Origin: an uncultured Poribacteria bacterium
Lineage (GTDB): Bacteria > Poribacteria > WGA-4E > WGA-3G
Direction of reading: 5' to 3'
Length of the DNA: 64,000 nt
Assembly: GCA_951813565.1 (NCBI GenBank)
Contig: OX638351.1
Coordinates: 3,904,001 to 3,968,000 of the forward strand
Position 1 is the stretch's first letter. Every line of letters begins with the position of its first letter. Of this stretch, positions 16,234 through 60,431 are shown one piece after another. The notes under the pieces are model-generated. The model saw only the letters and a list, made by a program, of their open reading frames with translations, had not been told where the DNA came from and made no database searches. A program made the position numbers and the translations under genes.

Positions 16234-16655
16234 TACAGTGAAATCTAAAATTAACGACTTGTGCTAGTTAACTGTTTATTTTTGTTGTTTTCACACATAT
16301 TGGGTTTTTTTCTATAAACATATCGTCCCTACCAAATCAACGCCAAATGCGCTTATGGCATTTGGCGGGACTGAAGAGCATATCAACCAGTAGGAAACAC
16401 GGACAAAACGTTCTGCTTATGTGAAATAGTATGTTGCAAAAAGTTATTTAGCACAACTCGTAAAATTACTTGGACAATTCTTTATAGGTTTGCTGCGTTT
16501 GTAGTCGCGCAATTCATTGCGCCTCTTCCTGTAGGAGCGACCCGCCAAATGCCAAAAGCGCATTTGGCGTTGATTCGCAGGTCGCGACTTTAAAACTGTA
16601 GAACACTTTGTCCGTGCCGAGTGACAATGTCCAGTTAATTCTAAAATCCACTATA
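16234..16655. mobile_element. Composite MITE (outer TATAGTGG-type TIRs) with inner MITE, REPs and two 34-nt micro-elements
   Basis: Outer ends TACAGTGAAATCTAAAATTA..CTTGGACA and TGTCCAGTTAATTCTAAAATCCACTATA; inner element 16254-16461 with ACGACTTGTGCTA/TAGCACAACTCGT ends and AAAATTA duplication. Confidence 0.7.
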
Positions 16656-26429: not shown

Positions 26430-27284
26430 ATGAAAAAGTTTTTGATTGCAATTACACTATTGCTATTCCTCACAAGTGTTGCAGCACATGCACAGTGGCG
26501 CAGCAAAACACATGACGTTTACAACGCACTTCAAAATACTCTTGACATTAAGATTGATGGTGAACTTGATGACGCTGAAGGGTGGGAAGGTGTATTTGAT
26601 ACAGTCAAAGGGACCAATGGAGAACCATTCTGCGGTGTCAAAAATGATACTGATGGGGCAGGAGCAGAGAAAGCTTTTGAATCCCATGGAGGAGGCGATT
26701 GGAAAGGGGCTGATGACCACGAAACCTGTTTTGCAATTGTCTGGGAACCAGATGCCGTTTATATTGGACTAAGTGTTACTGATGACGAGCATCAAAATGG
26801 CGGTGGACAATGGAACGGTGATAGCTTGCAGCTTGCATTTGAACCGACTGGTAAGCGCGACGGAGGACTAACACTCTTTCTCTATAACGTTGCGTTAGGC
26901 AACGATGCAAAGAACATGCTTCCTGTTCATAATGAGACAACAAACGGTGGTCCAGGACTTGTTGCTGGGGAAGATGTCGCCATAACCCGAAACGAAAACG
27001 AAAAAGAGACTTATTATGAAATTGCAATTACTCCTGAAGATTTGGGCTTGAATAGTCAGTTTAAAGAAGGATACGAATTCGGAATCGGAATTTGTGTCAA
27101 CGATGGCGATAAAGCCGCCGGCCAAGAAGGGCAAAAAGGGTGGAGTGGATGGTATCCACGTGCGGTTGTTCACGGAAAAAATTCTGAAAATACAGGGCTT
27201 GTCATTCTCACTGATGAAGTTCTTGCTGTTGAACCTTCAAATAAGTTAACAACAACTTGGGGTAAACTAAAATCAACCCAATAG
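26430..27284 (+). CDS. Secreted CBM9/DOMON-like sugar-binding protein with C-terminal TWG motif
   Basis: Signal peptide; IKIDGELDD, VYIGLSVTDD, WNGDSLQL, YYEIAI, ICVNDGD; ends AVEPSNKLTTTWGKLKSTQ. Confidence 0.8.
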   Translation: MKKFLIAITLLLFLTSVAAHAQWRSKTHDVYNALQNTLDIKIDGELDDAEGWEGVFDTVKGTNGEPFCGVKNDTDGAGAEKAFESHGGGDWKGADDHETCFAIVWEPDAVYIGLSVTDDEHQNGGGQWNGDSLQLAFEPTGKRDGGLTLFLYNVALGNDAKNMLPVHNETTNGGPGLVAGEDVAITRNENEKETYYEIAITPEDLGLNSQFKEGYEFGIGICVNDGDKAAGQEGQKGWSGWYPRAVVHGKNSENTGLVILTDEVLAVEPSNKLTTTWGKLKSTQ

Positions 27285-27557
27285 GTGTCAACTTAAGGAT
27301 ACACCTTCTTGTGGGAGGGGTTTGTAACCCCGATTTAATTAGTTTAGGTTCACAAAAGCGGGGTTACAAACCCGACAAATGCCAAAAGCAGAATCAACGC
27401 CGAGCGCGCGTATGGCACTCGTCGCATTTGGCGTTGATTTGGCAGCATGCCATACGGGGAATGCCAACAAGCATTCATACCGTTGATTTGGCGCATGCTG
27501 CGTTGATTCACTCCCACAAGAGACAATCTGGTAATTATGTGCTTAAATTGACGCCTA
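27282..27557. mobile_element. MITE with 24-bp target duplication, carrying an inverted REP pair and a micro-element stack
   Basis: TIRs TAGGTGTCAACTTAAG and CTTAAATTGACGCCTA; direct repeat TGGGGTA(A/G)ACTAAAATCAACCCAA at 27258-27281 and 27558-27581. Confidence 0.85.
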
Positions 27558-27755
27558 TGGGGTAGACTAAAATCAACCCAATAACTGTTTTGACATAAGC
27601 TAAAACTGCTAAACCGTAGCGGAAAAACAGCCGCTACCTAATCTGTTTGGGCAGAAATACCTGCCCAATTTTCTAACACAGGAAGCAACGCTGTTGCTCT
27701 TTCAAAACTTCCACTGCTAAGGTGGAATATAATTAATATAGAGAGGTAAATTTAG

Positions 27756-28601
27756 ATGAAAAAACAGGTTTTTGTATTTGCTGCACTATTTGCAGCAGTA
27801 ACTCTACTTACAATTAATGTCGCAGATGCACAGTGGCGTAGTCCAACACACGATGTATACAATGCCCCATCTGGTGTTGACGTTACCATTGATGGTAATC
27901 TTGACGAATGGGGTGAGGTTATGGATGCTGTCACTGGAACTGACGGTTCCCCGTTTTGCGGCGTAGAATTTGAAGGCGTCGGCGGCGCAGTTAAAGTTTT
28001 TGAAGAACACGGTGGTGGTAAATGGAACAGTGCTGATGACCAAACAGTCTGTTTCATGATTGCTTGGAACCCCGATGCGGCTTATCTTGCACTGAGTGTT
28101 ACTGATGACGAGCATCAAAATTCCGGTGCTGCATGGAATGGTGATGCCGCACAAATCGCATTTGAACCAACTGGCAAGCGCGATGGAGGGTTAGCACTCT
28201 TTCTCTATAACGTTGCATTAGACAACAATGCAGAAAATCTCATCCTTCATAATGAGAGAACAAACGGACAACCTGGTCTTGAGGCAGAGAGAGATTTTGC
28301 AATCACTCGAGACGAGGGTGCTAAGAAAACCTACTACGAATTTAAATTCACTCCTGCGAATTTCGGTCTTGCTGGTTCATTTAGTGCAGGTATCGAAGTC
28401 GGTTTAGGTATCTGTGTCAATGATGGCGATATAGACACTCCTGGGCAAAAAGGGTGGGGTGGTTGGTATCCGCATTCTGTTGTCCACGGAAAAAATTCCG
28501 AAAAGACGGGACTTGTTGTGCTTAGCAGCAATGCGGTAACCGCTGTTGAACCAGCTGATAAACTTACTACTACATGGGGTAATTTGAAATCTACCCAGTA
28601 G
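27756..28601 (+). CDS. Secreted CBM9/DOMON-like sugar-binding protein (paralog) with C-terminal TWG motif
   Basis: Strongly similar to 26430-27284; ends AVEPADKLTTTWGNLKSTQ. Confidence 0.8.
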   Translation: MKKQVFVFAALFAAVTLLTINVADAQWRSPTHDVYNAPSGVDVTIDGNLDEWGEVMDAVTGTDGSPFCGVEFEGVGGAVKVFEEHGGGKWNSADDQTVCFMIAWNPDAAYLALSVTDDEHQNSGAAWNGDAAQIAFEPTGKRDGGLALFLYNVALDNNAENLILHNERTNGQPGLEAERDFAITRDEGAKKTYYEFKFTPANFGLAGSFSAGIEVGLGICVNDGDIDTPGQKGWGGWYPHSVVHGKNSEKTGLVVLSSNAVTAVEPADKLTTTWGNLKSTQ

Positions 28602-50399: not shown

Positions 50400-51015
50400 T
50401 TTGTTGGAAAGAGGATGAAAAGGCGGGAATCTTGGGAGACGTCGGTTAGTGAGAATTACCTAATAGGTTCGCCGTTAGCGTTACATCTCGGATGCCTTAT
50501 ACGATCTTCACTACAGACAACCATTATTATGGTACGATTTATCATGGAAAATTCTTCATATAACATAAGTGGTTCACTCGCTAAACATTTATTACATAGA
50601 GAACGGGCGGAATAGATCCAAAAGTCCCTCCCCTCGCTTGCAGGAGGATAAAGGGTGTGAATTTAGGGATTTCAAAACATAGAATACTCAAATTACTTAC
50701 CGAGTAAACCATTTAGAAATGGTATAACAATAACGTGAGTTTGATAAATCCCGTAGGGAATCAACACCGAATGCGCCTACGGCATTCGGTGGGGTAGAAC
50801 GGAAATGGACAATAAAAATAGACCCTAAAGAGAGGTTGTTGACCTATTTGAGGTCGATATTTCCGAAAAAATAAGTGAAATCCAACTCTTTAGGACTCTC
50901 AAGACGGTTGAATTGTTGGGTTTCGCTTCGCTCTACCCAACGGACATCTATATTCATTCTAATTATCAAGCTCACGTTAACAATAGGCATTTTCAGTAAC
51001 TGCCACTTTTTAATT

Positions 51016-60108: not shown

Positions 60109-60431
60109 TAGTGGAGTGTCTACCGAAATTTTGCGGGTAAAGGTCGCGATTCGGAGATCGCTCCTACCGATGGAACGTTTATGGTAGGAGGGAACTCCGA
60201 TTCCCGACTACTTTCAAACCCATCAATTATCACTTGACGAGGCACTAAGTTGCTCGGACAAGATTTCAAGTTAGCAAACACTGCTTTTTACTGAATAAAC
60301 AAGGCTTTTTCGCTGATTCTTATGTTTTTTGTTCTAAAATCCAAATCAACACCAAATGCGCGTTTGGCATTTGGCGGGGTTAGAAACCCCTCCTACAAGA
60401 GCATTTGCGAAATAGGTGACAACTTGGGTTA
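60109..60431. mobile_element. Two abutting MITEs with REP pair and a 34-nt micro-element
   Basis: TAGTGGAGTGTC...GACGAGGCACTA enclosing GATCGCTCCTAC/GTAGGAGGGAAC; 60245-60431 is an inverted copy of 34483-34637. Confidence 0.7.

Follow-up and report, generated by a model that had tools for sequence, protein, structure and literature searches.

The locus described here raises the question of how one arm of a small REP-like repeat, downstream of a CBM9-like gene, came to hold 137 bp of further hairpins, and of what kind of DNA these consist. In the window (the whole stretch of 64,000 nucleotides of Poribacteria DNA that was analyzed), reading of the sequence and a script both resolved positions 27374–27510 into exactly four units of 34 or 35 nt, and the script reproduced to the base the division into 34, 34, 34, and 35 nt that a sequence-only reading had proposed. 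The stack is real, and it is unusually small selfish DNA. In a single joint judgement, we consider it probable both that its parts are four members of a large family of 34- to 36-nt, single-hairpin, non-coding mobile modules and that a MITE-like host element inserted here in this lineage, its stack being made of composites that already existed elsewhere. The locus is laid out as follows, with the basis of each assignment in brackets.

27258..27283, plus strand: left copy of a 26-nt direct duplication, at the 3′ end of the CBM9-like gene 26430–27284 and including most of its stop codon (repeat search; single copy in all 11 relatives)
27284..27557, no strand: MITE-like host of 274 bp with terminal inverted repeats of about 14 nt (GGYGTCAAYTTAAG...), carrying the REP doublet and the stack (absent at the orthologous site in 11 of 11 relatives)
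27311..27331, plus strand: left REP-like arm, a GTGGGAG tag and a 6-bp/3-nt hairpin, empty (sequence, repeat search, and script)
27332..27359, no strand: spacer between the REP arms (conserved in four paralogues)
27360..27373, minus strand: hairpin part of the right REP-like arm, its CCC end directly abutting the stack
27374..27389, plus strand: 5′ part of unit A (T1), stem and loop (script and parser, restored in round 1)
27390..27423, minus strand: unit B (T1), 34 nt, inverted within the loop of A (script and parser)
27424..27441, plus strand: 3′ part of unit A, stem and GTTGATTTG tag, A being 34 nt in all (script and parser)
27442..27455, plus strand: 5′ part of unit C (T1) (script and parser)
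27456..27490, plus strand: unit D (T2), 35 nt, in the loop of C between CATAC and GC and in the same orientation as C (script and parser)
27491..27510, plus strand: 3′ part of unit C, stem and GTTGATTCA tag, C being 34 nt in all (script and parser)
27511..27517, minus strand: tag part of the right REP-like arm, CTCCCAC (script; survey of REP sites)
27558..27583, plus strand: right copy of the 26-nt direct duplication (repeat search and relatives)

Deletion of 27374–27510 joins GGGGTTACAAACCC (27360–27373) to CTCCCAC (27511–27517), and the product is the exact reverse complement of 27311–27331, as had been claimed from the sequence alone. This outcome is specific to the boundaries chosen: among 169 combinations of start and end within 6 nt on either side, only the pair (27374, 27510) restored the 21-nt arm. 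Either inner unit can be shifted by one base: B lies at 27389–27422 or 27390–27423, and D at 27456–27490 or 27457–27491. Once D is removed, restored C has six intact copies in the genome. Restored A, with the loop CAAAAGC, has no uninterrupted genomic copy, and its nearest intact relatives carry one extra A in the loop.

Repeats of this kind could have been mis-joined in the single-contig assembly, and short-read contigs from four public runs of different studies do break in the interior of the stack, none of them bridging 27320–27532. However, contigs from all four runs contain the right junction of the host and contigs from three contain the left one, so that both outer junctions occur in independent studies; a 64-nt unitig over 27388–27451 shows no differences from the assembly; and the same nested composites are found at many loci and in many genomes. 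An assembly artefact is, on these grounds, an exceedingly unlikely explanation of the stack.

The units share a common layout, in which a hairpin of about 25 nt is followed by an unpaired 9-nt 3′ tag consisting of GTTGATT and two further bases (GTTGATTYN in T1). Units of type T1, to which A, B, and C belong, were defined by a 9-bp stem, a loop of 6–8 nt (mostly CAWAMGC), the return stem, and the tag; those of type T2, to which D belongs, by two closing pairs, a 7-bp stem, a loop of 4–6 nt, a 3-nt bulge, and the tag. GTTGATT occurs 2358 times in the genome vs. about 938 expected occurrences, and a hairpin with at least eight of nine pairs precedes the tag at 332 of these 2358 sites, compared with 5 of 2358 random 34-mers. 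A two-type parser applied to the whole genome returned 646 intact units (457 T1 and 189 T2) and 42 hosts restored by exact excision, i.e., 688 units, whereas the same parser recovered 16 intact and no restored units from a reversed-genome decoy. At the 2358 GTTGATT sites the parser resolved no more than these 688 units; they form 535 clusters, 441 of which are single units and the largest of which contains nine. Two other procedures were rejected. A parser demanding the closing pair in the minimum-free-energy DNA fold returned 301 units only and missed those of this locus, and pair counting was used instead. A shifted-excision control with a lenient weight matrix restored 12–15 hosts at every shift, the same as exact excision; it is uninformative because a loop shift of 1–5 nt hardly alters the score, and the reversed-genome decoy and the exact-arm test were used as controls in its place.

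Variation in the stems indicates what has been conserved. Among 153 unique 34-nt T1 sequences, stem pairs 3, 4, 5, and 8 vary between two or three Watson-Crick combinations, each present in tens of sequences: CG (76), AT (31), and TA (28) at pair 3, AT (70) and GC (67) at pair 4, and GC (103) and AT (30) at pair 8. Units were chosen for pairing, hence the reversed-genome decoy, and not these counts of pair types, is the real control. The hairpin is maintained through compensatory changes, and the tag is invariant. Elsewhere in the window, solitary T1 units occur at the following sites.

16333..16366, minus strand: 3′ of CCC within a hairpin loop, inside a 418-bp MITE absent from the closest species (G006)
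16544..16577, plus strand: in the loop of a GTAG-tagged REP, in the 418-bp MITE that also holds 16333..16366
50757..50790, minus strand: 3′ of CCCC
60342..60375, minus strand: at the 3′ foot of a GGGTT..AACCCC hairpin

The 418-bp element itself (16236–16653) has imperfect inverted termini of about 21 nt that start with CAGTG, and an apparent TA duplication; it is missing at the orthologous site of G006, and the two T1 units that it holds lie within other hairpins.

The distribution of the family was examined with the T1 pattern, one mismatch being allowed, and with the backwards pattern as a control. Matches were found in 38 of 39 other genomes of the genus, with 0–264 matches per genome among the 40 genomes and 213 in this one, in 83 of 111 genomes of the same Poribacteria family, and in 1 of 64 genomes outside that family; the backwards pattern gave 0 matches everywhere. 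Of 22 loci in relatives, 21 are from Candidatus Poribacteria MAGs. A literature search that covered titles and the openings of abstracts found no paper describing these Poribacteria repeats.

It could be argued that such elements are functional RNAs or protein-binding hairpins (terminators, mRNA stabilizers, or nucleoid sites) under selection rather than selfish DNA. Roles of this kind are known for REPs, according to passages of one paper (PMC3733652). Moreover, 491 of the 535 clusters (92%) are intergenic in that they lie outside crude ORFs, the region of the stack folds strongly in comparison with shuffles (z = −8.5), and unique stems with a single mismatch contain G.T in 26 cases vs. A.C in 11, an excess that gives a weak hint of one strand folding. 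Against function, tandem, divergent, and convergent spacers are used in proportion to their length, and the orientation of clusters relative to transcription (175 vs. 137) shows no clear bias. A search of the stack region in Rfam matched no family at E ≤ 1. The wide span of copy number inside one genus points the same way, as does a comparison over 35 kb of synteny with G006, in which two unit-bearing blocks here and two in G006 are all lineage-specific and none of the four is shared. We regard a selected function as a very improbable account of the family and retain its interpretation as selfish DNA.

Where the units sit is more regular. In unit orientation, the base preceding a cluster is C in 478 of 535 cases, and positions −2 and −3 are C in 385 and 367, respectively. 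The preference persists among the 173 flank contexts that occur only once (C in 129, CCC in 67) and is therefore not due to a founder effect alone. The units sit directly 3′ of C, mostly CCC, without target duplication. Typically they are found at the 3′ foot of another small hairpin or within its loop, and loops of the family's own members also serve as sites. Sites at which a REP-like hairpin is joined to CTCCCAC are empty in 181 cases and occupied in 87; the occupied ones follow ...CCC, and none of the 87 belongs to the abundant hairpins that end in GCC. AAAACCC precedes 71 clusters. The end of the tag also varies with what follows it. At 86 of the 87 occupied REP sites the last unit before CTCCCAC has a tag ending in CA or CG, and more generally the last two bases of the tag track the first flanking base, with TG before G in 204 of about 214 cases and CA, CG, or CC mostly before C; at junctions internal to arrays, TG is found in 111 of 111. 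This association is not predicted by a simple cut-and-paste model and counts against it; it could reflect founder effects or microhomology-guided copying. The two orientations number 239 vs. 209 and 45 vs. 42 on the two inferred chromosome arms, with no bias seen, although the arms are uncertain because the GC-skew curve is atypical: the cumulative skew of the 5.43-Mb chromosome is lowest at 0.49 Mb and highest at 5.05 Mb, which gives two very unequal arms, atypical for a bacterium.

Nesting is equally regular. In 27 of the 42 nested cases the guest is a T2 unit that splits a T1 loop between CAYAC and GC and is oriented like its host; these hosts comprise nine different sequences with five or six different stems. 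Another 11 cases are unit B, in opposite orientation at one position of A-type loops; its 12 genomic copies are 100% identical, and all 12 occupy the same place in A-type loops, in four host variants. The other four cases are mixed T1 guests, with b at position 9 (same orientation) and at position 16 (opposite orientation, two cases), and another T1 in a T2 host at position 17 (same orientation). At the 72 fully parsed REP sites the commonest array is A C (17 sites), and a (11), C (8), a C (6), A(B) C (4), C A C (4), and others are also found, the number of A-C repeats varying among arrays (A C, A C A C, A C A C A C); the arrangement at this locus, A(B) C(D), occurs once. The longest array found, at about 3,536,300–3,536,650 of the genome, occupies a REP arm with nine identical F-type T1 units, placed head-to-tail with a period of 35. 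Nests that reach four to five levels, too deep for the parser to resolve, are located for example at about 691,200–691,400 and 1,166,300–1,166,500. In them a T2 lies within a C-type T1 and itself contains a second T2, just before a tag that reads CTTGATT, not GTTGATT; this inner T2 in turn contains tag-less hairpin modules.

The history of the element that carries the stack bears directly on the origin of the stack. At the orthologous site of all 11 relatives fetched, the gene end adjoins the downstream spacer directly and the 26-nt sequence is single. By this comparison, the 274-bp host is a MITE-like element that inserted in this lineage downstream of the CBM9-like gene, duplicating 26 bp. 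The sequence-only reading had looked to the orthologous spacer of relatives for versions with zero to three units; the host is absent in all 11, and therefore no such versions exist there. Structurally, the host carries an inverted doublet of GTGG/GTAG-tagged REP-like hairpins (27311–27331, and 27360–27373 with 27511–27517), one arm of which holds the stack, and it has both the inverted termini and the target duplication of a MITE, whereas T1 and T2 units have neither. The host family has 29 paired copies in the genome, 16 of which were counted with flanking direct repeats of 14–27 nt. These repeats are locus-specific, begin near TGGG, end near CCCATA, and are often centered in another palindromic repeat; target duplications of such length imply widely staggered cuts. 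The two genes at 26430–27284 and 27756–28601 are tandem paralogues in which CBM9-like domains are weakly matched (E about 1e-5). Because the inserted element abuts its stop codon, the former gene now stops with TAG; the stop is TAA in the second duplication copy and in 9 of the 11 relatives. A search of the JGI metagenome collection for same-species contigs gave 0 matches to a 24-mer taken from the end of the gene.

Within the genome, the four closest paralogues of the host backbone have the same two hairpins, spacer, and right flank, but their unit content differs from that of the present host.

About 4.7369 Mb: right arm empty; left arm with one inverted C-type unit
About 4.0701 Mb: right arm with one unit; left arm with one inverted C-type unit
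About 4.9123 Mb (host cut short): right arm with one unit; left arm with one inverted C-type unit
About 4.4735 Mb: right arm with one unit that has an unparsed insert; left arm with one inverted C-type unit
This locus: right arm with four units; left arm empty

The minus-strand C-type unit of the left arm is thus present in all four paralogues and missing here, and unit boundaries in the paralogues are base-precise on both arms. These differences suggest gain or loss of single units, insertion and precise deletion being indistinguishable from the paralogues alone. At the orthologous site, no unit-level polymorphism was seen at this locus.

Four successive insertions at this very site, of A and C into the REP arm and then of B into A and D into C, would account for the exact decomposition, for close paralogues that differ by single units, and for the D variant, which in its exact form is unique to this locus. 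However, seven loci carry the A(B) composite in identical form, and A-type loops are the only place where B is found. Two further loci, whose backbone is different, match the 83-nt stretch 27374–27456, i.e., A(B) and the beginning of C, with 100% identity; an array at about 4.4754 Mb ends with the same kind of C(D), its D one base away from the D here; among ready-made arrays, A C is the commonest; and the whole host is a lineage-specific block insertion. These observations together indicate that the stack consists of ready-made composites. Four local insertions are improbable in this light, and the stack is best read as pre-nested composites that were presumably inherited or copied en bloc. 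In such a history, a 274-bp MITE-like element with its REP doublet would have inserted downstream of the CBM9-like gene with duplication of 26 bp, and the A(B) C(D) array would have been made of composites already existing elsewhere rather than by four local hits. The composites themselves may have spread by hitch-hiking, multi-unit copying, or gene conversion between arrays. It had been claimed from the sequence alone that the four units were independent insertions without gain or loss of target bases. The part of this claim that concerns discrete, base-precise modules and the lack of target duplication holds; that of four independent local events is not supported, given that the composites recur elsewhere and that the whole host is lineage-specific.

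How single units might move is a separate matter. A duplex of 34 nt cannot circularize, which suggests that the intermediate is single-stranded, either DNA or RNA. We infer that an enzyme reading hairpin and tag may move the units in trans, in the form of single-stranded nucleic acid; such an intermediate would be recognized by these two features and would target single-stranded CCC in extruded hairpins. The most likely kind of enzyme would be a Y1/HUH-type transposase, none of which could be linked to the units. The genome encodes 10 Y1_Tnp matches. At least three of them are IS200/IS605 copies with tnpB, and the ends of the resident IS200/IS605 (tnpA-tnpB) copies, when aligned, proved unrelated to the units. 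Four are RAYT-like genes, each flanked by its own GTAG-type REPs and not by T1 or T2 units, at these genome coordinates.

242,089–243,000: RAYT-like Y1 gene, followed by about eight tandem GTAG-type REPs
3,549,000–3,550,600: RAYT-like Y1 gene, with an in-frame TAG
5,070,300–5,071,500: RAYT-like Y1 gene
3,097,400–3,098,900: RAYT-like Y1 gene

When RAYT homologues were sought in 40 congeners, one genome with 157 T1-pattern matches had no homologue at E ≤ 1e-10. Since the Y1, RAYT, and IS200/IS605 searches gave no link, no enzyme can be named. Genes between pairs of unit clusters (33 scanned) were ordinary housekeeping genes and one cas1. A link to CRISPR was considered and rejected, the array beside cas1 having an unrelated 37-nt repeat. 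That array contains more than 40 copies of the repeat at about 3,992,470–3,995,720, roughly 24 kb past the window, and cas1 lies at 3,988,994–3,989,983.

The main rival to movement as a single strand is template switching at hairpins, which would require no transposase. A polymerase would stall at the CCC/GGG foot of a hairpin, switch by microhomology to another unit, copy one or several units, and return, and gene conversion and unequal exchange would then spread and resize the arrays. The tracking of the first flanking base by the tag end is what would be expected if both junctions need microhomology, and the uniform TG at internal junctions, the variable number of A-C repeats, and the lack of an identified enzyme also agree with this scenario. 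On the other hand, placing an inverted B at one loop position in four host variants would demand very specific switching, as would placing T2 at one position in nine host sequences, and an invariant 7-nt tag beside freely co-varying stems resembles a protein recognition site. We consider template switching rather unlikely. It is possible, and we offer it tentatively, that Poribacteria carry still-active mobile modules of about 34 nt, for which a candidate single-strand DNA (or RNA-mediated) machinery would perform insertion without duplication 3′ of CCC in extruded hairpins, the modules' own loops included.

The closest analogues of the units are the SDR elements of Nostoc and the REP/REPIN repeats. 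Elhai et al. (2008, Genome Res 18:1484) reportedly described SDR1–8 of Nostoc punctiforme and relatives as elements of 21–27 nt that show nested self-insertion and embedding in mini-transposons. As far as these descriptions extend, both groups are very small non-coding repeats whose hairpins show compensatory changes, insert precisely at a defined short target, nest within themselves, are embedded in a larger mobile element, and are restricted to a clade. They differ in host, Nostocaceae vs. Poribacteria, i.e., another phylum, and in length, the present units being longer at 34–36 nt in a comparison by description. They also differ in the conserved 3′ tag GTTGATT of the present units and in the target, which is here 3′ of C or CCC at hairpin feet and loops, rather than HIP1 as described for SDR elements. 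In the wording of citing papers, SDR5, of 21 nt, inserts between bases 3 and 4 of HIP1, and SDR elements are confined to one coherent clade (PMC4390886, PMC5861425, PMC13756078).

REPs are characterized, in passages of PMC3733652, as palindromic units of 20–40 nt with an unpaired GTAG or CGTC tag at one end and with sub-families that have alternative complementary stems, and section 7 of the same paper records REPs inserted within small palindromes. Compared with these passages, T1 units resemble REPs in the size of the stem-loop (34–35 nt), the compensatory stems, the high copy number, and the mainly extragenic location, but their tag is GTTGATT(YN), not GTAG or CGTC. A REP tag is found instead on the host arms, as GTGGGAG here and as GTAGGAG in the paralogues. 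Likewise, the host doublet fits the form of a REPIN (two inverted REPs with a short spacer that form one long hairpin), whereas T1 and T2 units, mostly single or in direct arrays, do not. The units also differ from REP, BIME, and REPIN elements in being single or head-to-tail, not alternating, and in being nested in each other's loops. A REPtron, in which a RAYT gene is flanked by the repeats that it moves, has no counterpart here, as no RAYT gene is flanked by T1 or T2 units.

Elements of the IS200/IS605 group insert 3′ of a short specific sequence without target duplication and have no terminal inverted repeats. In the IS608/ISDra2 literature, a hairpin is recognized and cleavage occurs a few bases beyond its foot, with one hairpin at each end of the element. 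Set against these features, T1 and T2 units are similar in their insertion 3′ of C, with CCC at about two thirds of sites, and in the lack of duplication and of terminal inverted repeats; recognition of a hairpin is plausible for them, and single-stranded hairpin loops are plausible targets. Unlike IS200/IS605 elements, they have one hairpin per unit rather than one at each end, and they are unrelated to the ends of the resident copies. The orientation bias with respect to replication that belongs to this group was not seen for the units, on chromosome arms that are themselves uncertain.

In Poribacteria MAGs, nests of these units break short-read assemblies and add length to intergenic regions, and they may be misidentified as RNA genes or as arrays of a CRISPR-like kind. 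To our knowledge, very small mobile elements have so far been reported only from Nostocaceae. If the reading as active modules of about 34 nt is true, the "very small mobile element" phenomenon would have arisen a second time, independently, in Poribacteria, and the modules would be among the smallest known. The target rule (3′ of C or CCC in hairpins), the invariant tag beside co-varying stems, and the gaps in copy number between sister species make a search for the responsible enzyme or process tractable; on the same reading, the target rule and a copy number of 0–264 in one genus would open a way to the enzyme through phylogenetic profiling. At about 34 nt, mobile DNA with base-precise and duplication-free insertion would mark the lower size limit of transposable elements.
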